Positions 8,961-53,015 are shown, numbered from the stretch's first letter. The stretch is DNA of 64,000 bases from Candidatus Poribacteria bacterium (GCA_022822085.1 JAJECK010000015.1:25782-89781), one strand, 5' to 3'. Program-made: numbers and translations. The notes: generated by a model not told the origin, from the sequence alone.

Positions 8961-9048
8961 TGTCCGTTGGGTTGAGGGACGAAACCCAACATGGAGTGCT
9001 CTATAATGCGTAAAGATGTTGGGTTTCGCCCCTCAACCCAACCTACGA
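8961..9048. repeat. Hairpin-forming REP/MITE-like repeat (family CGTAGGTyGGGTwGAGG...CCTCwACCCrAC)
   Basis: It is an inverted repeat: gggttgagggacgaaacccaacat ... atgttgggtttcgcccctcaaccc. Other members are at 28440-28545, 44050-44140, 52560-52640 and 52650/52930-53015, with a half copy at 14748-14790. Confidence 0.7.
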
Positions 9049-14690: not shown

Positions 14691-14827
14691 AGGACACTCA
14701 AAATCAAAATTCCTTAAGTTGACACCCGCTGAATGCCAAAAAGGCATTCATAGCGTTGATTTACGGGTTTCGTTCCTCAACCCAACGGACAAATTTGTTT
14801 TGTACAAAAACTTACATACCCCCATTT

Positions 14828-16866: not shown

Positions 16867-17712
16867 ATGCAACAAACAAGTACGAAACAGGTCGTCCGTT
16901 GGAATCTGTCTGAAACAACACAGATAGAAGATGAATTGGTTATTGAAGAACCGCTTGAAATTCGGGTAGGACAGCAGAGTCTTATTGTAGTCATGCGGAC
17001 ACCTGGGCATGATTTTGAACTCGCTGCTGGATTTCTATTTACAGAAAACCTAATTCAATCAGAAGACGACATTGAAATCATTGCCTATTGTGAAGATGAC
17101 AACACAGAATCAGATACTGATAATCTATACACTGGCAGGTCATCATTTCAGAACATTTTAAATGTTCATCTAAAGGATAAGTTGGTACTTGAAGAGGCAG
17201 GATGGCAACGAAATTTCCATGCAAATGCAAGCTGCGGACTCTGTGGGAAAATGACGATTGATTCGGTTAAACATCAAGTAGACCCGTTAGAGCTCGGTGG
17301 ACGATTAAATCATAATGTGTTATATCAACTGAATAATCAACTTAGGGCAGCACAAACTGTCTTTGATAAAACAGGTGGATTACACGCAGCAGGACTTTTC
17401 AATGAGATGGGTGAACCCCTAATTATCAGAGAGGATATCGGTAGACACAATGCAGTTGATAAAGTTATTGGACAAGCATTACTATCAGATATGATTCCGT
17501 TAGATAATCACATTCTGATGGTAAGCGGTCGTGCAAGTTTTGAGATAGTTCAGAAAGCACTTTTTGCCCGTATTCCTATTGTTGTCGCAGTATCCGCAGC
17601 TTCTACACTTGCAGTTGATTTAGCTGAAGAAGGAAACATTACTTTAATAGGTTTTATGCGAGATAAACGCATGGCAGTTTACTGCCATCCTAAGCGAATA
17701 CATAACGAATAG
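16867..17712 (+). CDS. fdhD: Formate dehydrogenase accessory sulfurtransferase FdhD
   Basis: Conserved FdhD motifs are present: ASCGLCGK (active-site Cys), TGGLHAAGLF and VSGRASFEIVQKA. Its length of 281 aa is typical. Confidence 0.8.
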   Translation: MQQTSTKQVVRWNLSETTQIEDELVIEEPLEIRVGQQSLIVVMRTPGHDFELAAGFLFTENLIQSEDDIEIIAYCEDDNTESDTDNLYTGRSSFQNILNVHLKDKLVLEEAGWQRNFHANASCGLCGKMTIDSVKHQVDPLELGGRLNHNVLYQLNNQLRAAQTVFDKTGGLHAAGLFNEMGEPLIIREDIGRHNAVDKVIGQALLSDMIPLDNHILMVSGRASFEIVQKALFARIPIVVAVSAASTLAVDLAEEGNITLIGFMRDKRMAVYCHPKRIHNE

Positions 17713-21885: not shown

Positions 21886-23883
21886 ATGAAAACAACAATT
21901 CCCATAATCACATTTATTCTTGTATTAGTAGGACACGCTTCTCTTGTTTTTGCACAAGATAACACACAAGTTGGTCTACCTGATGGTGCTATTGCGCGAC
22001 TTGGTAAAGGCGGGATCAACATAATGCGATTCTCACCAGATGGCAGCAAACTGGCAGTGGGTACGGATGTCGGAGTGTGGCTTTACGATGTGTCAGATGG
22101 AAATGCAACTGCCCTGTTCACAGATAAACCTGGTCAGGTCAACGCACTTGCATTTTCAAGTGATGAAAAAATACTTGCAAGTGGTGGACACGGAAACCCA
22201 TTCATACAACTGTGGAGCTTGGAGAACGGTACTAAACATTCTACACTGTTTTTTAAAAGCGAATTTAGATATGTTGTTGCCTTGGGATTTATTGGTAATA
22301 CACTTATAAGTTATGATAATAGTGGGAGAATTATTTATTGGAATATAAGCAATGGTGATATTTTAACAGAATTGGAAAAGGTGAATCCAAACCAAGCAGT
22401 TACATTTTCACCTACTACTAATCTTATTGCTGTAGCAGATAATTTACACAAAATACATATATATGATACTTCCTTAAGTGATAAGCATATTGTGTTTCAT
22501 GATGATGGATTAGATGAATTAAAAAAGGATATTTTTGCCTTAGCAATTACATCAAATAACAAAAAACTTGTAAGTGGCAGTGAGGACAAAGCAATTAGAA
22601 TTTGGGATATTGAAAAAAGGAAACTAACAACTTCTCTTAATGTCCATAAATCCACAATCACTTCTGTTGCCATATCACCTGATGACAAAATCCTTGCAAG
22701 TGGAGATGCCAGCAAAGAAATCATCCTTTGGGATGTTGATAATCCTAAAGAACTTAGGACATTATTAGGACACAAAAACACCGTTACTGCATTAGCATTC
22801 TCACCTGATGGTGCTGGCAAATATAGTGGTTGTCTTGCAAGTGGTAGCCATGATGGTACGATCCGGTTTTGGAACCCTGACACAGGTGAGAAACTTGTTA
22901 CTTTTGCTACGGGACATGCCAAATGGATTAAAACTATCGCCTTTTCTGAGAACGGGTCAACACTTGTGAGTGCTAACATGACTGGGAATGCAGTTGTTTG
23001 GAGTTTGAATAGCTATCAAGAAATTGGTAGTTTTACAAATGGAGAAAGCGACTATGCGGCTACAGTTGGATTCACCTCTGATGCTAAGCATTTTGTCTGT
23101 CAGGGGTTAAACGGATGGCAGTTTACGTTTAAGCCTTACGGTTTTGGGTATACCTCAAAAGACGGTGAAAATTATGAAGCACTTCCCCTAAGAATGTGGG
23201 ACATAACCACTCGTGAAGAAGTACAAGGTCCTTGGAATGAAAATTCATGTGATATACTTACATTTTCTGCTGATAACAAAATACTTGCTATCTATGGATC
23301 AGATAATGTATTGGGATGGAACATTGATTCTGCAGAAGAATTGTTTGATCTATCAACTGAGGATATATGGTTCATTGAACACATGGTAATATCGTCTGAC
23401 AATAAATACCTTGCTGTGTATGAATCCTCTGAGAAACTGTATATATGGAATTTAGAAAAACCAGAGGATCCGCCTGTCCAAACTAAATCGGATATTGACT
23501 CGTTGGCATTCTCTCCAGATGGTAATAGTATAGCAATATTGAGGAGTGGGAATATTTTCCTTCATGATATAGAGTCGTTCCCAGATGGTGAACCTGAAGA
23601 AATTCTTACAGACCTACACGGTCATGTAGCAAGAATGATCTTTTCTCCCGATAGTAAAATCCTGATATGCGCTGGATTTTCTGGTGTTATATCAAAAATT
23701 AGTATAAAGTTGTTGGATATGGAAACAGGTCAAGAAATTGGAAACCTTTCAGGACACTCGGAACTGATAGAGACACTCGCATTTTCTCATGATGGGAAAA
23801 TACTTGCCAGTGGCAGTTTTGATGGGACAATATTGCTATGGGATTGGGAAAAAATATCTAAAAGACAAGAAATGGTCAAATAG
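21886..23883 (+). CDS. Secreted WD40-repeat beta-propeller protein (paralog 1)
   Basis: It has a signal peptide. Multiple WD40 units have LASGS.D..I..W motifs. The N-terminal QVGLPDGAIARLGKGGIN block is shared with paralogs at 24393 and 44359. Confidence 0.75.
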   Translation: MKTTIPIITFILVLVGHASLVFAQDNTQVGLPDGAIARLGKGGINIMRFSPDGSKLAVGTDVGVWLYDVSDGNATALFTDKPGQVNALAFSSDEKILASGGHGNPFIQLWSLENGTKHSTLFFKSEFRYVVALGFIGNTLISYDNSGRIIYWNISNGDILTELEKVNPNQAVTFSPTTNLIAVADNLHKIHIYDTSLSDKHIVFHDDGLDELKKDIFALAITSNNKKLVSGSEDKAIRIWDIEKRKLTTSLNVHKSTITSVAISPDDKILASGDASKEIILWDVDNPKELRTLLGHKNTVTALAFSPDGAGKYSGCLASGSHDGTIRFWNPDTGEKLVTFATGHAKWIKTIAFSENGSTLVSANMTGNAVVWSLNSYQEIGSFTNGESDYAATVGFTSDAKHFVCQGLNGWQFTFKPYGFGYTSKDGENYEALPLRMWDITTREEVQGPWNENSCDILTFSADNKILAIYGSDNVLGWNIDSAEELFDLSTEDIWFIEHMVISSDNKYLAVYESSEKLYIWNLEKPEDPPVQTKSDIDSLAFSPDGNSIAILRSGNIFLHDIESFPDGEPEEILTDLHGHVARMIFSPDSKILICAGFSGVISKISIKLLDMETGQEIGNLSGHSELIETLAFSHDGKILASGSFDGTILLWDWEKISKRQEMVK

Positions 23884-24039
23884 AAAGTCTCAATAGATAA
23901 TACATGGGTGTGTAAAGTTTTTGTCACTTATCTGTCTGAACCCGGATTATTGCCAAATCAAAGGTCCGCATCATGGCGTATGCTGCTTTAGGCATTCCCG
24001 GATTTTACCGATTGCTCGGCTTATATGCCTGGAGATGCC

Positions 24040-24215
24040 AAGTTGTTTTGCGTCTGGGCGATAGTCCGTCTTTGTCCCGTCCGCTTCCAGATTGCGATTT
24101 TTTGTACCGTAATCTTCCAGATTGTGCAGTAGTGTGTGCGCAAACTGGAAGTGGACGGGACAAATGTGTGCAAGTAATTATAGATTCCACTATAATGGAA
24201 GGTGACTGAGTTTCA
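24040..24215. repeat. Composite ~170-bp structured repeat element (copy A) with a long imperfect hairpin and a conserved 3' tail
   Basis: It contains gtcccgtccgcttccag...ctggaagtggacgggac, a ~17-bp stem with one mismatch. It also has cttccagattg x2 and the tail acaaatgtgtgcaagtaattatagattccactataa. Homologous copies are at 35925-36110 and 62640-62830. Confidence 0.65.
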
Positions 24216-24392
24216 TGTGAAGACTCATCTATTTATTGAAGGCCGACGTTAATAAAAATTTAAAGCGACTATTTCCTTACTTAGTAGGTTCCTGTTGGAT
24301 TTCAGCAAACATCTATTCCAAATAGATTGAACTCCTGCATCATACCATATAAAATATTAGTAACACATAACATTTCAAATAAAATATCAACC

Positions 24393-26402
24393 ATGAAAAC
24401 ATCGTATTCTTTTTTCACCTTTATTCCTGTGTTAGTAGCAATAGTATCATCTGTTTTGGCAAGAGACAACACACAAGTTGGTCTACCTGATGGTGCTATT
24501 GCACGTCTTGGTAAAGGCGGAATCAATATAATGCAATTCTCACCTGATGGCAGCAAACTGGCAGTGGGAACAGATGTTAGTGTATGGCTATACGATGTGC
24601 CTGATGGAAATGCAACTGCTTTGTTCTCAGATAGTCCAGCGCAGGTTAACGCTCTTGCTTTTTCGAATGATGGAAAAATACTTGCAAGCGGAGGATATGG
24701 AAATCCTACCATACAACTGTGGAATTTGGAGGATGATACACTCCATTCTGACTTTATTCTTACAAGTAAGTCCAATTATGTAAATGCCCTTGTTTTTCAA
24801 GGGCAAATGCTCATTAGCTATGATAGAGTGGGTAACGTATCACGTTGGAATACCGATACTGGAATTATTTCTTCAGAATTGGTGAAAATACCAGCATTTC
24901 CAGCAATATTCTCACAAACAGGTAAAATTCTAACGGCTACAGACAGTTTAGGAAGAATTCACATATATGATACAATTACAAAAGAGAAATATTCAATACT
25001 TGCAGATGTTGAACTAAAAAAAGAATTGCAGTGTTTGAGTATAGCACCTAACGGTAAAACAATTGCATGCGGAGGCAGGGATAATATAATTAGATTATTG
25101 GAAATCGATAATGACAATAAGGTCCAATCATTAATTGGCCAAACAGCAGGAATAATTTCCATTGCTTTCTCCACTGATGGCAAAATTCTTGCAAGTGGTG
25201 ATTCAAATAAAGAAATTACAATCTGGGATGCTGAGAATACCAAGAAACTTAGAAAAATAAGTGGACACACAGGCACTGTAAATGCATTAGCATTTTCACC
25301 TGATGGGGCAGGTAAATATAGCGGTTGTCTTGCCAGTGGTAGCCTTGATGGAACAATCCGATTTTGGAATCCTAACACAGGTGAGGAACTTGTCAGCTTT
25401 GCTACAGGACATACGAAATGGATTAAAACTATCGCCTTTTCTGAGAACGGGTCAACACTTGTGAGTGCTAACATGACTGGAAATGTAGATGTGTGGAGTT
25501 TAAATGGTTATCAAGAAATAGCTACATTCGCGGATGGTGAATGTGATTATGCAGCTTCAGTTGCATTTACCAATGATGCTAAGTATTTTGTCTGCCAAGG
25601 GCTTAACGGCTATACGGTTACATTTGACTCCTACGGTTTTGGATATAAAACAAGAAGAAGTGATAATCTTGAAATACTACCTGTGCAAATGTGGGACATA
25701 ACCACTGGTGAAGAACATTACGGTCCTTGGAATAAGACATCAGGTAATTTATTGGCATTTTCACACGACAATAAAAATCTTGCCATCTATGGTTCTAAAA
25801 TATTGTTGGTTTGGAACACAGAAACTAAAGATGAATTGTTCAATACTGACACTGAGAAAATGTTTCGCATTGATGAGATGGTTTTCTCATCTGACAATAA
25901 AATGATTGCTTTATATGAAACATCAAGGAATGCTAAAATTTGGGATTTAGATAAACCAGATGAGCCATATATTCAAACCAAACATACAACAGATGCATTA
26001 GGGTTCTCTCCATGTGGAAGGTTTTTCGCTACATTAAAAGTAGGTGGTTTTTCATATCCTAAACCGGGAAAAATATTTATTCATATTTTAGATAGGTTTC
26101 CTGATGGCGAACCAATAGAAATTAGTGCCAATATCCACGGTTTTGAAAATAGATTAATCTTTTCTCCTGATAGCAAAACAATTGTTTGGGCAGGGACGTT
26201 AAATATGAGATCAAATGTTCGCATAAAATTATGGGATGTGGAAACTGGTGAAGAAATAAGAACATTATCTGGGCACACTGAACCTATAGAATCGCTTGCA
26301 TTTTCTCATGATGGGAAAATACTTGCCAGTGGCAGTTTTGATGGGACAATATTGCTATGGGATTGGGAAAAAATATCTAAAAGACAAGAAATGGTAAAAT
26401 AG
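24393..26402 (+). CDS. Secreted WD40-repeat beta-propeller protein (paralog 2, tandem duplicate)
   Basis: Architecture matches 21886..23883. The last ~130 nt, including the stop and ~25 nt of 3' flank, are nearly identical to paralog 1. A 50-nt internal block is identical (25430-25490 vs 22930-22990). The ATG at 24393 with a signal peptide is preferred over the tracker start at 24327. Confidence 0.75.
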   Translation: MKTSYSFFTFIPVLVAIVSSVLARDNTQVGLPDGAIARLGKGGINIMQFSPDGSKLAVGTDVSVWLYDVPDGNATALFSDSPAQVNALAFSNDGKILASGGYGNPTIQLWNLEDDTLHSDFILTSKSNYVNALVFQGQMLISYDRVGNVSRWNTDTGIISSELVKIPAFPAIFSQTGKILTATDSLGRIHIYDTITKEKYSILADVELKKELQCLSIAPNGKTIACGGRDNIIRLLEIDNDNKVQSLIGQTAGIISIAFSTDGKILASGDSNKEITIWDAENTKKLRKISGHTGTVNALAFSPDGAGKYSGCLASGSLDGTIRFWNPNTGEELVSFATGHTKWIKTIAFSENGSTLVSANMTGNVDVWSLNGYQEIATFADGECDYAASVAFTNDAKYFVCQGLNGYTVTFDSYGFGYKTRRSDNLEILPVQMWDITTGEEHYGPWNKTSGNLLAFSHDNKNLAIYGSKILLVWNTETKDELFNTDTEKMFRIDEMVFSSDNKMIALYETSRNAKIWDLDKPDEPYIQTKHTTDALGFSPCGRFFATLKVGGFSYPKPGKIFIHILDRFPDGEPIEISANIHGFENRLIFSPDSKTIVWAGTLNMRSNVRIKLWDVETGEEIRTLSGHTEPIESLAFSHDGKILASGSFDGTILLWDWEKISKRQEMVK

Positions 26403-26408
26403 AAAGGC

Positions 26409-26651
26409 TCAATAGATAATACATGCCCCACCGACACAGACACTTCCTGCTTTCTGCGTAACATCCCCTGCTACACTGTTTTCTTCTCCTGTTTCAAATT
26501 CTGAAATTAGAGATTCAGTTCTCTCAGTAGGTTTAGTAAGATTTATCTGTAAAGAGCCGTTTGTAGTCAGAGTAAATGTGCAGCCAGAGAATAGTATAGA
26601 AAATAAAAATACACACAGTAGTGTGATAGTAGGTATGTATTTGGATTTCAC
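26409..26651 (-). CDS. Small hypothetical lipoprotein
   Basis: It has a lipoprotein signal (LCVFLFSILFSGC). It is the last gene of the minus-strand selenoprotein cluster. The short length makes the call tentative. Confidence 0.3.
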   Translation of the reverse strand: MKSKYIPTITLLCVFLFSILFSGCTFTLTTNGSLQINLTKPTERTESLISEFETGEENSVAGDVTQKAGSVCVGGACIIY

Positions 26652-26655
26652 TAAA

Positions 26656-27768
26656 TTATACCTCTATTTTTTGAAGGTTCACTTGGTCAAGCGAGTTATT
26701 TCCTAATTCAAGTCCACTTGCTGATGTAATATGGTTTGCATATTTAGACATAGAACTTAATCCCATCTCCTCGCGTTTCTGATTGACAGTTTGAAGGATT
26801 AATACATCAAGGATAACCGGATCAGCACTTACAAACATTCCGCCAAATTGCCATGCACTTTCTGCGTGGTATGTCGGTCCGTGGTCAAACGAAGCCAACA
26901 ACCCATCAACGATATTCAGAACGACCTTATCCTTTATCACCTTATTTTCATAAATCTCGGCGATAGCAGGATTGCAGTAGAGCGGTCTGCCGTGGAATCT
27001 CCTCGTATTATCCACACTACCAAAAGCCATGTTCTTCAAACATCCGCTAACACCAGACATATCGTGATGCTTCAAGACAGGGACATTAATAACAACATCC
27101 ACCATTTCAGTAATGATACGAGAATAAAGGGAGCGAGTGCTTTCGTTTTCACGTCTTGTGATACTGTCCTTTTCGGTTTCATAGAAAACTTTATCGTCAT
27201 AACCTATGTCTTGTAAATTGGAAGCTAATGTTCGGACATCTCCTTCCTCGGTTCTAATAGGGAATCCTGCACTCAATAGGTGGTCTTCAAACCGGTCCCA
27301 AATGATAATTTGCTTTCTGAGAACACCTGCACTAAATAAAGCATCTACAATTTTATTTACAATGACAGAATGCGTGCTTAACTTTGGGCCAGCAAGTGGA
27401 TTGACTTTTATGCCTACTATATGATCAGGCAAAACAAAGTCTCTCCATGCTTCTTTTGCTGTTTCACGACCGGTAAGTTTAACCATAGCCTGATCCAGCA
27501 TATACGCTACAGCCTCTTCATTAAGTCTATCATCTTCCCACACCTGTTTCCCAAGAACTTCTACGACAGGAGTTAAATTCTCTTTCTGTGTTGGAGGTGT
27601 GAGAACCCGTCCCCCGATTTGTGCAATAGCGGGAAGTGTGGATAGTGCAGCACCACTAACAACCCCAATCGTCGTGAGGAATTCACGACGATTGAACTTG
27701 TTTCGTTGGGACACTGTCTCTTCACAGTCTGACAAGATGTTCGCTATAACCTTATCGTGAGGCTTCAT
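26656..27768 (-). CDS. Tat-signal periplasmic protein, DUF362-like
   Basis: It has a twin-arginine signal (NRREFLTTIGVVSGAALSTLPAIAQ). It is 370 aa. Its ATG overlaps the TAA of the upstream selenoprotein gene by 1 nt (TAATG), implying translational coupling. The family assignment is from memory of overall features and is low confidence. Confidence 0.45.
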   Translation of the reverse strand: MKPHDKVIANILSDCEETVSQRNKFNRREFLTTIGVVSGAALSTLPAIAQIGGRVLTPPTQKENLTPVVEVLGKQVWEDDRLNEEAVAYMLDQAMVKLTGRETAKEAWRDFVLPDHIVGIKVNPLAGPKLSTHSVIVNKIVDALFSAGVLRKQIIIWDRFEDHLLSAGFPIRTEEGDVRTLASNLQDIGYDDKVFYETEKDSITRRENESTRSLYSRIITEMVDVVINVPVLKHHDMSGVSGCLKNMAFGSVDNTRRFHGRPLYCNPAIAEIYENKVIKDKVVLNIVDGLLASFDHGPTYHAESAWQFGGMFVSADPVILDVLILQTVNQKREEMGLSSMSKYANHITSASGLELGNNSLDQVNLQKIEV

Positions 27769-28370
27769 TAGAGTTTACCTAATTCTGATAGGATGGTTGC
27801 AGTAGGTACACGTGAAGCAAAAGAATCTAACGACTTCCATGCAACTGTCCCATCCTGAGCAATAATATACGCTGATGGTCTTGCTATTGTTTCGTCAGTT
27901 TGATCAAGGACATTATATGCGTTAATTACATCTTTGTTAGTGTCTGCAAGTACGGGATACGTGAGTCCTTCTTTCTCAGTAGTGTTCTTTGTAAGACTTA
28001 CATTTTCAGAACTTATTGCGAATAGTTCTGTCCCAGTGTCTTTTATGTTTTCGTAATTTTGTTGCAACTCAACGAGTTGCGAGGTGCAAAGTCCTCAGCC
28101 GCCTGTTCGGTAGAAAACGATTACTACATTTTTTCCATTATCAAGATGTTCGGATAGTGTGTGTAAATTCTCAAACCCATCAGACAGTTCAAAATCTGGA
28201 GCATGTGTGCCAATCACTAAACCCTCACCTAATTCAGTTTCGGATTCGGTTATAGGCGTTGTCACTGTTTCTGTATCTTTAGTTTCATTTATCGGATCAT
28301 CTGATGTCCCACAACCAAATACGCCTATAAGTAACAATGCTAATGTAAGGAAAGTTAATTTTTTATTCAT
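27768..28370 (-). CDS. Selenoprotein: TlpA/ResA-like thiol:disulfide oxidoreductase lipoprotein (thioredoxin fold, redoxin family) with a UxxC active site. The Sec codon is the TGA at 28095-28097.
   Basis: Two tracker ORFs (28095..28451 and 27768..28067) share a frame and are separated only by TGA. Read-through gives ...VVIVFYRTGG-U-GLCTSQLVELQQNYENIK... U aligns with the first Cys of the WCxPC/CxxC motif of TlpA/ResA/Prx-like proteins. Downstream similarity to ResA (..YPVLADTNKDVINAYNV) supports this. A lipoprotein signal (LLLIGVFGCG) starts at the ATG at 28370, with an RBS (aaaggaa). A hairpin sits 14 nt 3' of the UGA. Confidence 0.7.
28064..28080 (-). promoter_or_regulatory. Putative bacterial SECIS stem-loop for selenoprotein 1
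   Basis: The mRNA reads GCAACUC-GUU-GAGUUGC, a 7-bp perfect stem with a G/U loop. It starts 14 nt after the UGA and lies within the codons for SQLVELQ. Confidence 0.6.
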
Positions 28371-28439
28371 ATCATGTATTCCTTTCAAGGATTTTAGTAA
28401 TCCTTGCCTTAATATTTTAACGTGAGTTTGATAATAAAA

Positions 28440-28545
28440 TCCAATAACCACGTAGGTTGGGTTGAGGAACGAAACCCAACATGGAGTGATCTAAAGTGAG
28501 TAAAGATGTTGGGTTCCGTTCCTCAACCCAACGGACACAGACTTA
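28440..28545. repeat. Hairpin-forming REP/MITE-like repeat (same family as 8961-9048) between selenoprotein genes 1 and 2
   Basis: The inverted repeat is acgtaggttgggttgaggaacgaaacccaacat...atgttgggttccgttcctcaacccaacggac. Confidence 0.7.
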
Positions 28546-28575
28546 TGTTTAGAATTATCAAACTCACATTAGGAG

Positions 28576-29706
28576 TTACCAAAGCTTACTCAACTCCTTC
28601 ATAATTCGTGTTGTTGGTACTCGTTTGTCAAATGTATCTATTGATTTCCATACGACTGTGCCATCAGATTCAAGAAGAAATGTAGACGGATTGAGTGCAC
28701 CTGTATCTACTGGAACTTCTACATTGAAAGGTTTGACTGCATCAAGGTTTGTATCAGAAAGGACAGGAAATTCAAGATTTTCTCTATTGACTGTTATTCT
28801 TGTTGCTGGTACATCTTGTATACTAATAGCAAATATTTCAGCATTATCTGCTTTTATTCTATCATAATTATCTTGCAACTCACCGAGTTGCGTTACGCAT
28901 GCAGCTCAGGCACCACCTATGTAAAAGACGACGATAGCATTTTTCCCTTCATCAAGTGTATCGTAAAGTGAATGTAGTTTTCCATTCCCATCAGGCAACT
29001 CAAATTCTGGTGCTTTAGAAAATATTGGTAAACCTTCCCCTGGTTCCTCGGGTTCAACTTCTCTATCACCGATCCCAATTGGTGATAACTTTACATTTAA
29101 TTTCTCAGTCTCATTTGCATCTAAAGGCTTCACTGAGAGATCGTAGACTTCATAATCGGCAGCTTCTATTGTCAAGGTAAACTTCTGTTGAGTCGGAAGA
29201 TTATCAAAATTGAAGATACCCTCATCGGAGGTAATAGTCTCGTCCTGTTTTCCATCTTGATCAGTAAGTTGTACGCGTATCTCAGGTAGTCGTATTCCAG
29301 TTCTGTTGTTCCGAACAAGTCCTATAATATGTGAAACAGGATATGACAATTCTTCAAGTGTGATAGTATCCAACGTAACTGTTTCACCAGCAATAACATT
29401 CACGTTGAATTCCATCTCCTGAAATCCTCGTGCTGAAATACGTAACGTGTAATTTCCTGCTTCAATTTTTCTGAGTGTGAAACCTCCAGTACTTTCCATC
29501 TGCGCGACAACTTTACCGTCTTTTAATAAACGGACCTTGATTGTCCCATCAACGTTTGGTTGTACTTTACCGTGTATAACACCAGTTGTGGTCTCTATTT
29601 CCGGTATTTCACTGACAGGATTTTCTACTGTCTCACATCCAAAGGCAGTTAGGAGTAGTAAGGGAATTGTGAGGAATGTAAATAATCGTCTCATTTTTTT
29701 CTCCAA
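28576..29706 (-). CDS. Selenoprotein: CarboxypepD_reg-like domain + TlpA/ResA-like thioredoxin-fold lipoprotein with a UxxC site. The Sec codon is the TGA at 28906-28908.
   Basis: Tracker ORFs 28906..29706 and 28576..28878 are in frame across a single TGA. The read-through is ...NAIVVFYIGGA-U-AACVTQLGELQDNYDRIK... It has a lipoprotein signal (LLLLTAFGC). The N-terminal ~150 aa resemble a carboxypeptidase-regulatory-like beta-sandwich (GVIHGKV...G.YTLRISARGF). A hairpin sits 14 nt after the UGA. Confidence 0.7.
28875..28891 (-). promoter_or_regulatory. Putative bacterial SECIS stem-loop for selenoprotein 2
   Basis: The mRNA reads GCAACUC-GGU-GAGUUGC, starting 14 nt after the UGA and lying within the TQLGELQ codons. 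Confidence 0.6.
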
Positions 29707-30107
29707 TTGTATATTAATTATTAATATAGTAACGTCTTATGCTAAATAATTATTTGTAAAACATTGTTATACATAAAGAGGAGGATTTGACCGTATATCT
29801 TTGCTTTGGATGATCTTTAGTCCCATCCGGACGATATGTTTATATGTTAAATCCATTTTATGCGAATACAATACAAACAAATAGTTAACTGACACAAGTC
29901 GTTATAGTAAATTTATTTTATCGAGTTACATTTGACATAGTTCAATTTAAGTGATTTATAGCAGTTTTTAGAATTGATTGGACATTAGGGAATTGTCGGA
30001 GGGAACTCCGATTCCCAACTATCATTGAGTTAAGTCTCGATTCGGAGACCGCTCCTACAGAATATGAAAAGTCATGAAAATAAAACACAACATCAATACA
30101 TCTCACA

Positions 30108-31214
30108 TTATAACTTCCCTAACTGGTCAATAATATCTTCATTTGGAACACGATGCCCTAAACGTTCATCAAGGAATGTCCATGCCACTATACCATTCCG
30201 ATTTAGTATAAAAGTGGCAGGACGTGCGATATGTTTGTTGTTTGGATCAACGACATTATAATCGGCGATCATCTTCTTTTCACTATCAGCGAGTACAGTG
30301 AACTTTAGTCCTTCTTTATCAACTGTTTGCTTTGATGAAGCCACGGTATCAGAACTAATTGCTATGAGTTCTGCACCTTTAGCTTTGATTTTTGCGTAGT
30401 CATCTTGCAACTCTCCGAGTTGCGAAACACAGAAAGGTCACCACCCTCCACGATAAAAGACTATGACTAACTTGGTGTCTCCGATAAATTCATCAAGCGA
30501 ACGTACTTGGTTGTTGCTGTCTGACAGTTCAAACCCTGGAGCTTGACTGCAGTCGATTAGTCCATTACCCGGATCTAAATCCACATTTTCACGAATCATT
30601 GATGTAAGTTTTACATCTATTTCAAAAGTGTTGCCAGCTTCAATTGCATCCACTGTTTGATCATACATCTCGTAACAAGTATGGGTGATTGATAGTGTGA
30701 AAGCATTATCAGCAGGTAGATTTTCAAAAATAAAGGTTCCGTCATCAGAAGTCAAGGTTTCATATTCTTGACCCGATGTTTCTGTAAGTTTAATTAGGAT
30801 ATTGGATAACGGATTGCCTGTTTCTTCATCAGTTAATTGACCATTCAAATGTGCAATAGGTTCTTCTAATGGTGAGAGTGTTACTTTATCAAGCACATAA
30901 GTTTCACCTGCAACAATATCGACTTTAAGTTCTGTTGTTTCATAACCTTTTGCGGATATTTCTACAGTATATTCGCCCTTTTCTATCTCACCCAGATCAT
31001 AATTTCCTACAGAATCAGCTTGTGCGATGAGTTGACCATCTTTCAGAAGACGAACATGAATTGTAACTCCTTCGATCTCTTCAACCTGTACCTGAAGTTT
31101 ACCTGATTCTAACTGAACTTCGTCAATTTTATCAATCGGATCTTCAGTTGATCCACAATTCAGTCCAACCAATATTAACAAAGCCAATGCAATGAGTGCC
31201 ATTGTCTGTTTCAT
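30108..31214 (-). CDS. Selenoprotein: CarboxypepD_reg-like domain + TlpA/ResA-like thioredoxin-fold lipoprotein with a W-U-P-F-C site. The Sec codon is the TGA at 30438-30440.
   Basis: Tracker ORFs 30438..31271 and 30108..30410 are in frame across a single TGA. The read-through is ...KLVIVFYRGGW-U-PFCVSQLGELQDDYAKIK... WUPFC mirrors the thioredoxin WCGPC motif. The probable start is the ATG at 31214 (MKQTMALIALALLILVGLNC lipoprotein signal) with an RBS (aaggaaa). A hairpin sits 14 nt after the UGA. Confidence 0.7.
30407..30423 (-). promoter_or_regulatory. Putative bacterial SECIS stem-loop for selenoprotein 3
   Basis: The mRNA reads GCAACUC-GGA-GAGUUGC, starting 14 nt after the UGA. The flanking uuuc/aaga can extend the stem with one mismatch. 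Confidence 0.6.
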
Positions 31215-31288: not shown

Positions 31289-31362
31289 GATTGTGCATAT
31301 TGTAGCACATTCATCCTTGATTGTGCATATTATAGCACATTCATCCTTGATTGTGCATATAA
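31289..31362. repeat. Tandem direct repeat, 30-bp unit x ~2.5 (gattgtgcatattgtagcacattcatcctt)
   Basis: Exact tandem copies lie immediately upstream of the selenoprotein-3 start. The unit shares the cttccagattgtgca motif with the composite repeat element at 24040. Confidence 0.7.
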
Positions 31363-31625: not shown

Positions 31626-32432
31626 CTAATGGGACGCACGTTGTTTAATAGTTCCCCAAGTCGTGGTCAATTTATCTTGTGCTTCAACAGAAGTTATATT
31701 CACAAGACCGTCAGACATAATAGAATTTATATCGTCTTCAGTCAAGGCGACGTTATAGAGTGCAACTTCATCAATGATCCCATTTGTATATCGGTCAAAA
31801 TGTCTTCCGATATGAAACACACCTTCAGCCGTTCCGTATCCATCATCGGTATTGAAATCGACTGCAGCTTCCATTTTGCCATCAATCCAAATAGATGCTT
31901 TACCGGTATCGGTATTCGCTACACCAGCAACAAAATGCCAATTGTCATCACCAATTTCTGTTGTGCTCTGAGGTCTGAAACTGGTATTACCACTATCGCG
32001 TAAGAAGAAAGTTACCTTGTTATCGCCACCACCGTTCCAAATCATGTACCACGGTGTTGCTTGAGATTTATCTTCATAATTCTTTCCTGCAAGTGAACCA
32101 CCGACCTTCGTTCCTTTGAAATGTGCAGTGAGAGAAAAGGATGTTCCAGACTCAAATGCTACGGTATCGGAATGTGCAACTTCAACCCAATCGTCTGTTC
32201 CATCAAATTGAAGTGCTTTCCCAAATTTTCCATCAACCCAGGTTGCCCCGTGTATTTGACCTTCATTATCTTGACTTGATGAATCACCTGCTACTGTGCC
32301 TGCACCTTCATCAAAAAGCCATAATCCAGTGATATTCTCATATCCATATTCAGCAAAACTTGGATATGCTATTAGTAAAGCGAGACCTATAAACAAAGTT
32401 AACGTAAATCCAAAATATTTCATATTGTCCAT
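31626..32432 (-). CDS. Secreted LamG/concanavalin-A-like lectin-fold protein carrying the conserved C-terminal tail
   Basis: It has a signal peptide (FTLTLFIGLALLIAYPSFA). It is a paralog of 32441..33238 (shared WLFDEGAG..DSS..N.G...GA.WVDG.FGKAL.F.GTDDWVEV.HSDTV.F..GTSFS...H.KG). It ends ...VEAQDKLTTTWGTIKQRASH. Confidence 0.6.
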   Translation of the reverse strand: MDNMKYFGFTLTLFIGLALLIAYPSFAEYGYENITGLWLFDEGAGTVAGDSSSQDNEGQIHGATWVDGKFGKALQFDGTDDWVEVAHSDTVAFESGTSFSLTAHFKGTKVGGSLAGKNYEDKSQATPWYMIWNGGGDNKVTFFLRDSGNTSFRPQSTTEIGDDNWHFVAGVANTDTGKASIWIDGKMEAAVDFNTDDGYGTAEGVFHIGRHFDRYTNGIIDEVALYNVALTEDDINSIMSDGLVNITSVEAQDKLTTTWGTIKQRASH

Positions 32433-32440
32433 ATCCTTTC

Positions 32441-33238
32441 TTATTGTAATTGTCGTTTAATCTTACCCCATGTTGTTGTAAGTTTACCAACAGCAGCGAC
32501 TGCTGCTGCTTCTTCCAAACCATTATTCATAATCGTATCCATTTCATCTTCACTCAAGGCAACATTAAATAGTCCAACATCATCAATGATTCCTTTAGTA
32601 TAACGGTCAAAGTGCCTTGCGATGTGAAAGACACTATCATTCGTACCGTAACCTTCAGAAACATCTAATGTGTCTTCCTGATTCTTTTTACCATCTATCC
32701 ACAAGGATATTTTTTTTGCATCTGCATCTGCAACTGCAGCGATAAAATGCCATTTTTCATCTGAGACAGGCACGGTACTATCTATTTTTGAATTCTTATC
32801 TGCTGAGGTGCGAAGATAGAAAGAAACATTTTGGTCTTGACCACCGTTCCAAAGCAGATACCAAGGTTTGACCTGTGATGTATCTTCATAGCCTTTGCCA
32901 ACAAGTGAACCTCCTACTGCTGAACCTTTGTAATGAAGTGTAATAGAAAAGGAAGTTCCCTTCTTAAACCCAACAGTATCTGAATGTTGAACTTCTACCC
33001 ACCCATCAGTACCATTAAATTCAAGTGCTTTGCCAAATTGACCGTCTACCCATTTTGCTCCGCCTATAACTTTTCCATCATTGCCATTACCAGATGAATC
33101 ATTTGCTTTATCACCGTTCCCTTCGTTAAAAAGCCACATCCCCATAATGTTGTCTGCATTTAAGGCAGCTTGTGACGGAAGGATAAGGAAACAGAATGTA
33201 ATTAGACAGAGTACAAAAATAAATAATATTCTCATCAA
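32441..33238 (-). CDS. Secreted LamG/concanavalin-A-like lectin-fold protein carrying the conserved C-terminal tail
   Basis: It has a signal peptide. It is paralogous to the downstream gene. It ends ...AAVGKLTTTWGKIKRQLQ. Confidence 0.6.
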   Translation of the reverse strand: MMRILFIFVLCLITFCFLILPSQAALNADNIMGMWLFNEGNGDKANDSSGNGNDGKVIGGAKWVDGQFGKALEFNGTDGWVEVQHSDTVGFKKGTSFSITLHYKGSAVGGSLVGKGYEDTSQVKPWYLLWNGGQDQNVSFYLRTSADKNSKIDSTVPVSDEKWHFIAAVADADAKKISLWIDGKKNQEDTLDVSEGYGTNDSVFHIARHFDRYTKGIIDDVGLFNVALSEDEMDTIMNNGLEEAAAVAAVGKLTTTWGKIKRQLQ

Positions 33239-38239: not shown

Positions 38240-39451
38240 ATGAAGGGTCGTACAATGCAGAATAATAGTCTTTACTATATTACTCATTTAGACAACTTAC
38301 AATCAATTTTTGCAAACGGGATTCTATCCTTTGATAGATTGAAGTCAGAAAATAGAAATGTCATCTCAATATTTAAGGGAAAGACTAAGGCAAAGGATGA
38401 TATTAGTCTTAGATCCTCAATCGTTCCACAATTTTGCAAAGACAATTTATTGAGTTACGTCAGTCTCTATTTTCAACCACGTAACCCATTGTTGTATCGC
38501 GCTATTCTGGAAATTGGTCTCGAAAATCTTGTCATTCTTGAAGTTGCAAACACAGTCCTTAGTAACCCTGGAGTAGTCATTACCGATGGCAAATCCACTG
38601 AAGAGCTAACACAGTTCTATCCATGTCCTCAGGGTTTAAAAAGAATTAAGCAGTTGGACAAAACAATTCGGAGCGATTGGTGGAAAAAATGTGACGGATC
38701 AAAACGACAAATCATGGCAGAATGTTTAGTACCGGAGTCTGTCATTCCTGAGTACATTCGTTCAATTATCATGGCAGACGAAATAGAGACTTTACTTGGA
38801 AAGATAATGTTAGATAATATTAAATTACCCATTGTTTGTCAACCTGAGAAATTCTTCCAACCAAAACGGAGGATTGCTGTAAGTGAAAATATTACACTCA
38901 TTGATGGTGGTGATATGTTTTTCTCTGAGATGCAGACATTTACAATAACAGTCAACCTTCAAGGAATAATGGGTAAAGGTTTGGCTTTACGTGCTAGAGA
39001 ACAATTTTCTGACGTTTATGTTGAATATGAGAAAGCATGTAGAACTAAGAAAATCACTGCTGATCGTCCTTACATTTACAAGCGCGAGGAATCCGTTCTC
39101 CATGAGTTAGTGGATATAGAACCATACCGTAACAAGATTAGGACTCCCTACAGATGGTTTCTGCTTTTTGCAACAAAACGACATTGGAAAACAAACTCAC
39201 GTATTGAGGATATTGAGAATGGTTTGAAATGGGTACAGGAATACGCCAAAACGGAAGGTATGCGATCACTTGCCATGCCTGCTCTAGGTTGTGCTTTAGG
39301 AGGCTTAAATTGGAAAGATGTCGCACCTTTGATGTGCAAATATCTTGATGTAATTGGAATACCTATTGAGATCTATCTTCCCCGAGAATACCCAATTGAA
39401 TCTAGATATCTATCAGAATCACATTTATTTGCACATCAGGCAGTTAGTTAG
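38240..39451 (+). CDS. Fusion protein: N-terminal DarT-like (DUF4433) domain + C-terminal macrodomain (DarG-like ADP-ribose glycohydrolase)
   Basis: The N-terminus LYYITHLDNLQSIFANGIL and ...IMAECLVPESVIPEYI parallel the upstream gene. The C-terminal half has macrodomain motifs: NLQGIMGKGLALRAREQF, ATKRHWKTNSRIEDIENGL and AMPALGCALGGLNWKDVAPLM. Confidence 0.6.
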   Translation: MKGRTMQNNSLYYITHLDNLQSIFANGILSFDRLKSENRNVISIFKGKTKAKDDISLRSSIVPQFCKDNLLSYVSLYFQPRNPLLYRAILEIGLENLVILEVANTVLSNPGVVITDGKSTEELTQFYPCPQGLKRIKQLDKTIRSDWWKKCDGSKRQIMAECLVPESVIPEYIRSIIMADEIETLLGKIMLDNIKLPIVCQPEKFFQPKRRIAVSENITLIDGGDMFFSEMQTFTITVNLQGIMGKGLALRAREQFSDVYVEYEKACRTKKITADRPYIYKREESVLHELVDIEPYRNKIRTPYRWFLLFATKRHWKTNSRIEDIENGLKWVQEYAKTEGMRSLAMPALGCALGGLNWKDVAPLMCKYLDVIGIPIEIYLPREYPIESRYLSESHLFAHQAVS

Positions 39452-44358: not shown

Positions 44359-46431
44359 TTAAGGGTTTAACTTCTGTTTGATAGATTCCCAATCCCACAG
44401 GATGACAGTACCATCTCTACTTGCAGTGGCTAAAGTCTTTCTATCTGGAAAGAACGCTAAATCGTTGACCAAATCGGTATGTCCTTTGAGGATATTCGAG
44501 ACGTTGAATGTACGTGTTTCCCGCACTTGTATTGTCCCGTTAGATCCACCACTAACAATGCTTGTATCATCAGGAGAAAACCGTAGACATCTACAGACTT
44601 CATTAGTACGACCTGAAGATATTCGCTCACCTGATGACACATCCCAGATATAAATTTCATCATAACTCATACTTGCCAATGTTTTTCCACTTGGTGAGAA
44701 TACTAACCTACGTATTGCATTTTTCTGTCCAGTTAGTGTAAGCCGTTTAGTCCCCTTTTCTATGTCCCAAAGGTGAATTATCTTGTCTTTGCCACCACTC
44801 GCTAATAGGTCTCCATTCGGTGATAGTGCCAATGTACTAAGAGAACCTGTAGAGCCATTAAGAGTGTAGACCGGTGCTATCGTCTTGACATTAGTCAACA
44901 GTCTTTTCAATATAGGTTTTGTCTGGATCGGAATGTTCCATATATGAAACTTACCGATTTGTTCATTCTGAGTTGCAGTTGCTAATCTATTCCCTACATT
45001 AGAGAATACAAAAGTTGGTATCTTATATGGGGGAACTTCAATCCCAGTTATAGTCAATCTCTTCCTTTTTTCGGAGGTGTCCCACAGTTCATAAGTATTT
45101 TCAGGACTCCAATCCTTTATTACAACATACTTTGCATCTGATGAAATTGCAAGAGGGGTTTCCCAGTTGAAGAAAGTTCCTGTCAAGTGATGGCCGACAT
45201 TGGTGTCCCAATTCTGTATTTGATAATTCATAAAATGCCCAGTTATTAGAGCATTATTCTCCTCCGAAATGGCTAAATTAACGACTTCTGATGCATGTCC
45301 CGAACAAGCAAGTTGCTGTCGACCAGTGTTAGCATCCCAAACCCGAATTGTACCATCTTTGCTGCCTGTAAGAAGTCTATTTCCATCAGGTGAATATGTT
45401 ATGTCTGAGATTGTGTATTTATGTCGAGTGAGTCTTTGCTTGGGAAAGAAACGTCTTATTTTTCCAAGCCAACCTTGTTGTTTTGCTGTGGCATCCCATA
45501 GATATATACTCCCATCGTGCCCACCACTAACAAGGGTTTTGCCATTCGGTGAAAATGCAAGCGCGGAAAAACTTATAGGTGCTTTGAACGATACCTGTGA
45601 TTCCTGTGTATCCATATTCCATAACTTGATAGTCCGAAAGTTATCACCACTTGCAAGTGTCTTACTATCTGGCGAAAAAGCTAAGGATTGAATAGACCGT
45701 TCATGTCCCGATAGTGTGAACAGAAGCTTAGAATTAGCCGTGTCCCATAAATGGATTGGAGTTTTTCTCTTTGAGCGGTGTTTTGACACTGCTAAGGCAA
45801 GAAAGCGTCCATCAGGTGAAAGTCCAATTACTGGACTATGTGTATCCTCAAAATCGAAATTTATACTCTTTATTTCGATCGGTTTTGGTGCTGACCGTTC
45901 ATTAAAACGCAAATGGACTATTTTATTCTGCGCCCTGCTTACACCTACCATCTCAGGACGATCTGCAGATAAGAGAACTGATGAATACTTGCTTTTTTCA
46001 ATAACAATAATGGTTTGGAGTTCACCAGTATCTGCATCCCATTGTACTATCTTTCCTCCTGAAACTGCTCCAATCAGTGTACTGCCATCCACTGAAAACA
46101 TTACTCCCTTAACATTCTGTCTATCTCCTTTTAATAGTGAAATCTCTGTTCCAGTCTTTGCATCATACATCCAGATGCCAATCGTGGTTGCCACTGCAAA
46201 CCAATTACCGTCGGGTGAAAATTTGATGTCATTTATACTGCCTTTACCTAAACGTGCTTTTGCACCTTCAGGTAACTGCCATCGGGAGTAGTTTACATTT
46301 GATGTAGGGAATGTCAATTCTATTGTATCACGATTCATCAACCTTCTGACGAATAATATCGAAGCAAGAACTGCAAGTATAGATATAAGAATCACTATGA
46401 GTATAGCAAAAGAGCGACGAGATAATTTCAT
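44359..46431 (-). CDS. Secreted WD40-repeat beta-propeller protein (paralog 3)
   Basis: It has an N-terminal TM/signal. WQLPEGAKARLGKGSINDIKFSPDGNWFAVATTIGIWMYDAKTG parallels the N-termini of paralogs 1 and 2. Many WD40 units are present (LASGS.D.TI.LWD). Confidence 0.7.
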   Translation of the reverse strand: MKLSRRSFAILIVILISILAVLASILFVRRLMNRDTIELTFPTSNVNYSRWQLPEGAKARLGKGSINDIKFSPDGNWFAVATTIGIWMYDAKTGTEISLLKGDRQNVKGVMFSVDGSTLIGAVSGGKIVQWDADTGELQTIIVIEKSKYSSVLLSADRPEMVGVSRAQNKIVHLRFNERSAPKPIEIKSINFDFEDTHSPVIGLSPDGRFLALAVSKHRSKRKTPIHLWDTANSKLLFTLSGHERSIQSLAFSPDSKTLASGDNFRTIKLWNMDTQESQVSFKAPISFSALAFSPNGKTLVSGGHDGSIYLWDATAKQQGWLGKIRRFFPKQRLTRHKYTISDITYSPDGNRLLTGSKDGTIRVWDANTGRQQLACSGHASEVVNLAISEENNALITGHFMNYQIQNWDTNVGHHLTGTFFNWETPLAISSDAKYVVIKDWSPENTYELWDTSEKRKRLTITGIEVPPYKIPTFVFSNVGNRLATATQNEQIGKFHIWNIPIQTKPILKRLLTNVKTIAPVYTLNGSTGSLSTLALSPNGDLLASGGKDKIIHLWDIEKGTKRLTLTGQKNAIRRLVFSPSGKTLASMSYDEIYIWDVSSGERISSGRTNEVCRCLRFSPDDTSIVSGGSNGTIQVRETRTFNVSNILKGHTDLVNDLAFFPDRKTLATASRDGTVILWDWESIKQKLNP

Positions 46432-46435
46432 GTGC

Positions 46436-47059
46436 TTATTTCCTTGTTGAGTTTAGTAGATGCTCATAGATAGATTGCGCATGAATATAGTCCTCTGGTG
46501 TGTTGATATTGAAGAAGGAAAGTCCATCGGGATCGTACAATTTCCATTTCTCTGGATGGATAGACAAGACATTTGCATGTTCCTGCAACGCATGGACGCG
46601 TAATTCAGATTGCTGCAACATCTCCTCAATTATCGGAATGCATTGTTTAGAATACACTGTACATAGGGTTTGGAGGGTTTTCTGTGTATCGCTTACCTTT
46701 TTGGTTGTAGGCATTACTGCATCATAGTTTCCTAATACAGAAACAAGATAATTGAGTAGATTTGGGTTCAAAAATGGACTATCGCAACCGACACAGATTA
46801 CCGTTTGATGTGATGCGTTTTTCAAACCAGAATGAATGCCCCCTAATGTGCCTACATTCTGTATAATATCGTGATGCATTTCAATATCCAGATGTGCATA
46901 TTCATCTGGCTTATTTGTGATAAGGAGCAGTTCATCAGCGATTGACTTCATGCCCTTGATGACATGACCGATGAGTGTGTCGCTTCCCAGACGCAGAAAA
47001 GCCTTATTTTGTCCCATCCGACGGCTTTTTCCGCCTGCTAAGATTACTCCTGTTACCAT
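46436..47059 (-). CDS. mobA: Molybdenum cofactor guanylyltransferase MobA
   Basis: The N-terminus MVTGVILAGGKSRRMGQNKAFL is the canonical MobA nucleotide-binding motif. It is 207 aa. Confidence 0.75.
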   Translation of the reverse strand: MVTGVILAGGKSRRMGQNKAFLRLGSDTLIGHVIKGMKSIADELLLITNKPDEYAHLDIEMHHDIIQNVGTLGGIHSGLKNASHQTVICVGCDSPFLNPNLLNYLVSVLGNYDAVMPTTKKVSDTQKTLQTLCTVYSKQCIPIIEEMLQQSELRVHALQEHANVLSIHPEKWKLYDPDGLSFFNINTPEDYIHAQSIYEHLLNSTRK

Positions 47060-52559: not shown

Positions 52560-53015
52560 TATCTTGTCCGTTGAGTTCGTGAACCCCAACACATATCGAT
52601 AAATGTTGGGTTTCGTTCCTCAACCTAACCTACGATACTAATATAACGAAAGGGGCGTAGGTCGGGTAGAGCGTGAGCGAAACCTATAAGCGTCAATTTA
52701 GTGAGTAAAGTGCATCTGGAACACCTGTCGCCCCTCTGGGCTTTGGCCACACACAGGCATCATCTGCTATACACCTGTCGCCTCTCTGGGGCTATCTTCA
52801 ATCATATATCAGCACCAGCGGTGCGAAAGGTATATAGAATTCACAGGCCAAAAGAAACCAAGCACCAGCGGTGCGAAAGGGTGTCCGATAAAATTGGATT
52901 TCCAACTATAAAACAAGAGACAGGCTCTTAAATTGATGCCTATGGGTAGAGCGTGAGCGAAACCTGACATTCACGGCACGTGTCGGGTTTCGCTCACGCT
53001 CTACCCGACCTACGA
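52560..53015. repeat. MITE-like composite bounded by REP/MITE hairpin-repeat arms, with internal direct repeats
   Basis: There is a complete hairpin at 52560-52640 and arms cgtaggtcgggtagagcgtgagcgaaacct (52650) ... aggtttcgctcacgctctacccgacctacg (53015). The interior holds direct repeats cacctgtcgccyctctggg x2 and agcaccagcggtgcgaaagg x2. The tracker ORF 52701..52931 is probably non-coding. Confidence 0.55.

Follow-up and report, generated by a model that had tools for sequence, protein, structure and literature searches.

Why should genes for selenocysteine (Sec)-containing redoxins stand directly upstream of, and overlap, a gene for a DUF362 protein with a twin-arginine translocation (Tat) signal? 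The question is raised by a locus in Candidatus Poribacteria bacterium, a member of a phylum of uncultivated sponge symbionts, in which three redoxin genes (sel3, sel2 and sel1), the DUF362 gene and a gene for a small lipoprotein follow one another within a stretch of 64,000 nt (hereafter the window, with coordinates counted from its first letter). Here we report that the three redoxin genes have the hallmarks of selenoprotein genes, and that the last of them appears to be translationally coupled to the DUF362 gene, a redoxin gene and a DUF362 gene being adjacent in all the Poribacteria loci that we compared. In our assessment the chances are about even that the DUF362 protein is a periplasmic redox enzyme and that a tethered selenoprotein serves as its dedicated electron partner, within a conserved envelope array.

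Selenocysteine codons in the three redoxin genes

Each of the three genes contains one in-frame TGA, which supplies the first residue of a UxxC motif within an AhpC/TSA domain, and read-through of this codon yields a continuous domain in all three redoxins according to Pfam. The motif contexts are W-U-P-F-C in sel3, A-U-A-A-C in sel2 and G-U-G-L-C in sel1. A hairpin of the form GCAACUC-GNN-GAGUUGC, with a 7-bp stem and G as its first loop base, starts 14 nt past each TGA, and its loops in the window are GGA, GGU and GUU. For comparison, 36 other Poribacteria loci were used, one genome having been scanned per species, and 50 orthologs and paralogs of the redoxins were collected from these genomes with tblastn. 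TGA, and never a Cys codon, occupies the UxxC site in 50/50 of these genes, and the C-terminal half beyond it is conserved in each of them, a degree of conservation which rules out that the redoxin genes are pseudogenes.

The hairpin overlaps codons for the peptide Q-L-x-E-L-Q, and synonymous codon choice within it is frozen. Across the 52 redoxin genes over which hairpin codons were counted, CTC was used in all 52 (22% of Leu codons in the background), as were GAG (52/52, against 34% of background Glu codons) and TTG (52/52, against 16% of background Leu codons); the sole variant is a CAA to CAG change that keeps a G-U pair. Because TGA also terminates 6 of the 38 genes of the window as an ordinary stop, the genetic code is standard and reassignment of TGA is ruled out. 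A scan against Rfam returned no family of selenocysteine insertion sequences (SECIS), only sub-threshold microRNA-like matches on a palindromic repeat. At the level of sequence, the three UGA codons are thus established as codons for Sec, each of them accompanied by a SECIS hairpin of the bacterial kind, and the identification of the trio as selenoprotein genes in the preliminary description of the locus is borne out by the position of TGA at UxxC, by the hairpin and by the retention of TGA in 50/50 homologs. In public gene calls on the source contig (L001 6555-10001) each redoxin is cut at the UGA, giving six fragments; since annotation pipelines split all three redoxin genes in this way, the cassette is invisible in public annotation.

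All three redoxins start with a signal peptide ending in Cys (lipoboxes V-F-G-C in sel1, A-F-G-C in sel2 and G-L-N-C in sel3), and nearly all of their orthologs likewise have a Cys after the hydrophobic region. Two CarboxypepD_reg beta-sandwich domains were matched by Pfam in sel3 and two in sel2, with none in sel1, so that the earlier assignment of such domains to the redoxins holds for the two long proteins and fails for the short one. The same domains had been taken to suggest an association with TonB receptors or the outer membrane; Pfam matched no TonB-receptor or outer-membrane domain in the cassette proteins, and CarboxypepD_reg is here better regarded as a generic beta-sandwich. The broader idea, that the genes encode an envelope redox unit, is reasonable, as every product carries a predicted export signal.

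In fold and motif, the redoxins correspond to the known selenoproteins listed as "Prx-like thiol:disulfide oxidoreductase, PF00578, UxxC" in PMC2398784 and in a 2026 review (PMC13188914). With these proteins, described as "Prx-like 1" in ocean metagenome selenoproteomes, they have in common the AhpC/TSA fold, Sec in UxxC and a SECIS just past the UGA; they differ in being predicted lipoproteins, two of them with CarboxypepD_reg stalks, and in their coupling to a Tat-signal DUF362 protein. Neither DUF362 nor lipoproteins are mentioned for the Prx-like selenoproteins in PMC13188914. The Tso and SAO operons likewise bring several selenoprotein genes together at one locus (PMC13188914). The Tso genes belong to three unrelated families (TsoA with LULAxC, the rhodanese/DsbD-like TsoB, and TsoC; PMC13188914), whereas the trio in the window consists of paralogs of one family; no NCBIfam Tso model matched any of the proteins scanned, which rules out membership of a Tso operon.

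Among established families, neither peroxiredoxins nor ResA/TlpA proteins accommodate the redoxins. The NCBIfam models for BCP, PrxQ, AhpC and PrxU gave 24-52 bits against cutoffs of 140-272, and the Thr of the PxxxT/SxxC motif is replaced by Sec; the best sub-threshold match, ResA, gave 55-56 bits against a cutoff of 170. A peroxiredoxin-type Arg is present by inspection in an 'IARP..[FY]I' motif. The redoxins resemble TlpA, ResA and CcmG in having a membrane tether facing the periplasm and a W-C/U-x-x-C site, proteins of that kind typically serving one dedicated client system; they differ from them in using Sec instead of Cys, in keeping the peroxiredoxin-type Arg and in scoring below the ResA cutoff.

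The selenoprotein family itself is therefore already known. According to PMC13582414, Poribacteria have hydrogenases that contain Sec, and the literature searched contained nothing relevant linking the phylum to the selenoproteins described here. Nor did we find in it the coupling of such a redoxin to a Tat-signal DUF362 protein of predicted LarA fold and a mini-lipoprotein with a Cys pair, the occurrence of this cassette throughout a phylum, or an exchange of polyferredoxin for selenoprotein of the kind considered below.

A coupled core within a conserved array

The five genes between 31214 and 26409 all lie on the minus strand, as previously described (Table 1). The stop codon of sel1 and the start codon of the DUF362 gene share one nucleotide within TAATG, and the small lipoprotein gene begins with GTG 4 nt past the DUF362 stop. 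With spacings of -1 and 4 nt, sel1, the DUF362 gene and the lipoprotein gene form what is, by its layout, a tightly packed and translationally coupled core.

Table 1. Genes and other features of the cassette and its upstream region, in window coordinates
Feature	Position	Strand	Description
LamG_B	32441..33235	-	Secreted Laminin_G_3 protein with signal peptide; Pfam PF13385, 1.7e-14
LamG_A	31626..32432	-	Second secreted Laminin_G_3 paralog; Pfam 5.3e-16
sel3	31214..30108	-	Lipoprotein-type signal peptide, two CarboxypepD_reg domains, AhpC/TSA 5.7e-30, motif GGW-U-PFC
sel2	29694..28576	-	Architecture as sel3; AhpC/TSA 3.8e-23; divergent motif GGA-U-AAC
sel1	28370..27768	-	Short lipoprotein redoxin, 200 aa; AhpC/TSA 2.5e-28; motif TGG-U-GLC
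DUF362 gene	27768..26656	-	Tat-signal protein, 370 aa, PF04015
Small lipoprotein gene	26651..26409	-	80 aa, GTG start, lipobox F-S-G-C
sel3 Sec (UGA) codon	30438-30440	-	SECIS hairpin GCAACUCGGAGAGUUGC at 30423-30407
sel2 Sec (UGA) codon	28906-28908	-	SECIS hairpin at 28891-28875
sel1 Sec (UGA) codon	28095-28097	-	SECIS hairpin at 28080-28064
TAATG overlap	27770-27766	-	sel1 stop / DUF362 start, 1 nt shared
Tandem 30-nt repeat	31289..31348		In the 411-nt gap upstream of sel3; strand not assigned
Nested palindromic repeat	28418..28571		Resembles repetitive extragenic palindromes (REP) or miniature inverted-repeat transposable elements (MITE); most of the sel2-sel1 gap; core GTTGGGTTGAGGAACGAAACCCAAC
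Promoter-like site	33339-33311		TTGACG-N17-TATACT upstream of LamG_B, read from sequence

The core recurs throughout the comparison set. A Sec-redoxin gene lies directly upstream of the DUF362 ortholog in 36/36 loci, at DUF362 identities of 54-81%; the 1-nt stop/start overlap is found in 30 of the 36, and overlap or abutment in 34. Downstream of it, the gene for the small lipoprotein is present in 35 of the 36, the exception being a contig that ends there. The coupling of the last redoxin to DUF362 proposed earlier, with the lipoprotein gene close behind, is thus upheld by the neighbourhood comparison, and the possibility that homologs of these genes never occur together elsewhere fails on the same counts. 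The conserved array is also larger than the five genes originally delimited (26409-31214), for it extends upstream, in the same orientation, to the LamG genes at 31626-33235. In 31 of the 36 loci the redoxins are directly preceded, in the same orientation, by one or two LamG genes whose products have signal peptides; where a genome has a single redoxin gene, the distance to it is often no more than ~20 nt. LamG_B is the first gene of the conserved array in the window. Across the phylum the order is LamG gene(s), lipoprotein Sec redoxin(s), Tat-signal DUF362 and the 80-aa lipoprotein with C-x4-C-x2-Y. As the cassette occurs in every Poribacteria species sampled, it is likely to be part of core envelope physiology.

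The trio was not recovered as a conserved unit: 22 genomes have a single redoxin copy and 13 have two, three copies being confined to the lineage of the window. In a neighbour-joining tree of the redoxin domains, two groups stand apart: an ancestral 'GGW-U-PFC' type with stalks, to which sel3 and all single-copy genes belong, and a derived 'TGG-U-GxC' proximal type, including sel1, which took over the place beside DUF362; sel2 is a long-branch extra copy seen only in the window's lineage. Judged by this tree, the ancestral array has one long redoxin, and the trio are lineage-specific paralogs.

Whether sel3, sel2, sel1, DUF362 and the lipoprotein gene nevertheless make up one operon, transcribed as a single mRNA and with the three selenoproteins working as one unit, has to be weighed against the spacing of the redoxin genes, and we regard it as doubtful. 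The shared orientation speaks for it, as do relatives with two redoxins, some of which have the copies just 2-39 nt apart, and a consensus scan found no site resembling an intrinsic terminator on the minus strand in the two long gaps, so that read-through is possible. Against it, the gaps of 413 nt (sel3-sel2) and 205 nt (sel2-sel1) are far beyond those typical within operons. Most of the second is occupied by a dispersed palindromic repeat, the gap being predicted to fold as RNA at -85.2 kcal/mol (z = -9.6), and the 25-nt core of the repeat (GTTGGGTTGAGGAACGAAACCCAAC) occurs in 6 copies in the window versus 0 expected. A further 411-nt gap, between LamG_A and sel3, carries tandem promoter-like elements, and the variation in redoxin copy number from 1 to 3, together with the fast evolution and lineage specificity of sel2, also argues against a trio that acts as one unit. 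The five-gene operon of the preliminary description is accordingly retained for the closely packed sel1-DUF362-lipoprotein segment and questioned for the three redoxin genes, the long gaps between which appear to be secondarily expanded.

Each 30-nt unit of the repeat upstream of sel3 holds the hexamers TGCACA-N17-TATAAT or TACAAT and a GTGC-N8-GCAC inverted repeat, and it may represent a separate regulated promoter for sel3 or a duplicated operator/promoter; promoter-like matches in the region as a whole are at chance level in the consensus scan (23 found, 20.2 expected). The palindromic repeat is found at 28418-28571, 8966-9042, 14762-14786 and 52605-52629, in the form of near-identical inverted pairs of ~77 nt including the spacer, one of them between sel2 and sel1, and as solo copies.

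The small lipoprotein has an invariant lipobox, F-S-G-C, and an equally invariant C-terminus, GD-x-T-x-K-x-GS-x-C-x-GG-x-C-x-x-Y-COOH. It has no Pfam or NCBIfam match, and all of its homologs with an organism name come from Poribacteria; as far as sequence comparison can define it, it is an orphan family specific to this phylum.

Both LamG genes, for which no NCBIfam family was found, end in a KLTTTWGKIK tag (tag ends at 31626-31680 and 32441-32500). The consensus is [AP]-V-[ED]-P-x-x-K-L-T-T-T-W-G-x-I-K, followed by 2-6 residues, and it is found on otherwise unrelated secreted Poribacteria proteins, including LamG proteins, a NosD-like beta-helix protein and proteins of ~200 aa that have no known domain (for example at L041 9815-10876, L027 4174-4764 on the minus strand and L019 4943-5824). 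The window contains only two tagged open reading frames (ORFs), both in the cassette array. No Pfam or NCBIfam sorting-signal model matched the KLTTTWGxIK tail, which looks like an undescribed, phylum-specific sorting or recognition tag. The LamG genes and the surrounding sugar-metabolism genes hint at carbohydrates, but such genes are common in the phylum.

The DUF362 protein and its partners in other phyla

The claim that the Tat-signal protein is DUF362-like was confirmed by a match to PF04015 that scored 74.9 bits (cutoff 24) and spanned positions 1-198 of the 200 in the profile; the protein also has an invariant twin-arginine motif. Since the N-terminus does not vary among homologs, its ATG start is confirmed as well. 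The signal reads N-R-R-E-F-L-T...LPAIAQ, with R27, R28, F30 and L31 invariant in Poribacteria, and RRxF[LI] is present in most distant DUF362 homologs, so that the protein has the features of a Tat substrate and its export is predicted. A conserved segment of 26 residues, predicted to be helical, precedes the twin-arginine motif in the Poribacteria proteins; helix and motif together would fit proofreading and cofactor loading before export.

From an AlphaFold model built on an alignment of 84 sequences from two phyla, DUF362 is predicted to adopt the fold of the nickel-pincer-nucleotide racemases (LarA-like), with which the earlier suggestion of a protein that folds around a cofactor before export agrees. 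Residues that do not vary among 76 homologs drawn from many phyla include K121, N228, P230, K233, H235, K245, H259, D288, D316 and D321, and no four-Cys cluster motif was found. The spacing H235-x9-K245-x13-H259 is invariant. In LarA, a catalytic His, the Lys that tethers the cofactor and a Ni-binding His are spaced H174-x9-K184-x15-H200 (PMC11770544). In comparison with the LarA superfamily (DUF2088), DUF362 has a similar predicted fold and no detectable sequence match; it is shorter (~310 mature residues versus ~420), and its predicted Tat export and pairing with electron carriers suggest net redox chemistry in place of redox-neutral racemisation. A profile search returned >3,500 DUF362 homologs, none of the NCBIfam families covers the protein, and the literature searched held no link of DUF362 or of nickel-pincer enzymes to Tat export. 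The cassette may therefore serve as a handle on a large uncharacterised family, for which the evidence gathered here comprises the predicted LarA fold, wide Tat targeting and consistent pairing with electron-transfer proteins.

This pairing is most apparent outside Poribacteria. Of 41 non-Poribacteria loci that contain a Tat-signal DUF362 gene, 30 also encode a membrane polyferredoxin of 500-600 aa on the same strand, usually within tens of nucleotides, whereas none of the 39 loci of Poribacteria or their closest relatives has a DUF362-linked polyferredoxin within 4 kb. According to Pfam, these proteins have two Fer4_5 domains plus dicluster Fer4 domains, of the NapH/NosR type; domain-confirmed examples come from Acidobacteria, Verrucomicrobia, Bacteroidales, Fibrobacteria and Spirochaetia, the loci as a whole extending to further groups, and in Acidobacteria the cluster has the order polyferredoxin, DUF6599 lipoprotein, DUF362, DUF362. 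The two-gene module of Tat-signal DUF362 and polyferredoxin is widespread (loci L042, L045-L047, L049, L054-L082 and L083-L085), and no description of it was found in the literature. It follows the same logic as NapG/NapH and NosZ/NosR, in which a Tat-exported periplasmic redox protein has a membrane polyferredoxin as its dedicated electron partner, the DUF362 protein being exported by prediction. Two differences stand out: in Poribacteria the partner gene encodes a Sec-redoxin lipoprotein instead of an iron-sulfur (Fe-S) protein, and the exported enzyme would have a LarA fold, as opposed to being a molybdo-, copper- or Fe-S enzyme.

An electron partner, a peroxidase or a maturation system

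Since a membrane-associated electron carrier is the regular companion of exported DUF362, we read this protein as a periplasmic redox enzyme and the selenoprotein as its partner, a proposal that we place near the midpoint between belief and disbelief. DUF362 would fold in the cytoplasm, probably around a cofactor, and after export by the Tat pathway it would act as a redox enzyme in the periplasm. There, the tethered selenol/thiol redoxin may be its dedicated electron donor or acceptor, taking the role that the polyferredoxin would have in other phyla. The small lipoprotein, by way of its CX4C motif, could be a docking or dithiol-relay subunit, the long redoxins could have their beta-sandwich domains as stalks, and the LamG proteins may bind a substrate, possibly a glycan. 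Reducing equivalents would perhaps come from an upstream protein of the CcdA/DsbD type. If the Sec redoxin is indeed the partner, a selenoprotein would clearly have taken the place of an Fe-S protein in a module that is otherwise conserved, which would bear on why some lineages retain Sec.

Several points weigh against this proposal. The physical or electron-transfer link between redoxin and DUF362 is drawn from gene order. A selenol/thiol redoxin moves two electrons through a dithiol and a polyferredoxin moves them one at a time, and for this reason a swap of partners would not be mechanistically trivial. The nickel-pincer site in DUF362 stays putative because the protein has no Pfam DUF2088 match and because two DUF362 profiles found nothing meaningful among PDB sequences, even at E up to 10. 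Its His-Lys-His arrangement resembles that of LarA only in spacing, and the correspondence is an inference, since a LarA homolog, sought for residue-level alignment, was absent from the loci compared. Cys243, near K245, is universal in Poribacteria and is also present in a few polyferredoxin-linked homologs, so it is no clean marker of a thiol-based mechanism. The lipobox of sel3 (G-L-N-C) is atypical. Within the window there are no larBCE and no CcdA/DsbD genes; likewise, it contains no tRNA gene, and no Sec-machinery gene was seen among the proteins scanned.

A wider form of the proposal, to which we give only tentative credence and clearly less than to the pairing itself, is that Tat-exported DUF362 proteins are unrecognised extracytoplasmic redox enzymes built on a LarA scaffold, which may use a cofactor, loaded in the cytoplasm, that is of the nickel-pincer type or otherwise carries hydride. 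The electron partner of these enzymes would have been exchanged in the course of evolution: Bacteroidota, Acidobacteriota, Verrucomicrobiota and others would use a NapH/NosR-type polyferredoxin, and Poribacteria a tethered Sec redoxin with the CX4C mini-lipoprotein. The tagged LamG proteins would present a glycan or hydroxy-acid substrate. If correct, this would connect the LarA superfamily for the first time with the periplasm and with electron transfer by selenoproteins.

The redoxins could instead be general periplasmic thiol peroxidases or antioxidant peroxiredoxins, which would share with DUF362 no more than regulation or localisation. The AhpC/TSA domain, the peroxiredoxin-characteristic Arg and the presence of BCP, PrxQ and PrxU among the sub-threshold NCBIfam matches would all suit such proteins. 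We nevertheless consider this unlikely: none of the peroxiredoxin models reaches its cutoff and the best match below threshold is ResA, while the replacement of the Thr of TxxC by Sec gives a thioredoxin/TlpA-like W-U-P-x-C site. Moreover, the overlap (30/36) and adjacency (36/36) of the redoxin and DUF362 genes have been kept as DUF362 diverged to ~54% identity, which points to stoichiometric co-production.

Less probable still, and in our view improbable, is that the cassette matures or anchors envelope proteins, with the small lipoprotein or the tagged LamG proteins as substrates modified by DUF362 or reduced by the redoxins, by analogy with TlpA, which maintains the ScoI Cys pair in reduced form so that metal can be loaded. 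TlpA/ResA-type redoxins do typically have dedicated protein clients, the invariant C-terminus of the small protein contains a Cys pair, and the conserved array opens with the tagged LamG genes, which alone among the ORFs of the window bear the tag; set against this, further proteins encoded near the array, on either strand, bear it too, it matches no known domain for sorting or maturation, and the DUF362 proteins of other phyla, which have neither the small protein nor LamG, keep the invariant residues and the pairing with an electron carrier. A maturation or anchoring role leaves the DUF362-polyferredoxin pairs of other phyla unexplained.

Other genes of the window lie outside the array. Genes of the FdhD/NarQ family and for a MobA-like nucleoside triphosphate (NTP)-transferase, which are maturation factors of molybdoenzymes, are located 9-20 kb from the cassette (16867-17712 and 46436-47059), and the window showed no gene for a formate dehydrogenase. 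Several large genes for WD40 beta-propeller proteins of 665-691 aa are present at 21886-26402 and 44359-46431, and WD40 genes are convergent to the cassette in most Poribacteria loci. At 38240-39451, DarT, a thymidine ADP-ribosyltransferase acting on single-stranded DNA, is fused to a Macro domain in one ORF, in a toxin-antitoxin-like arrangement.

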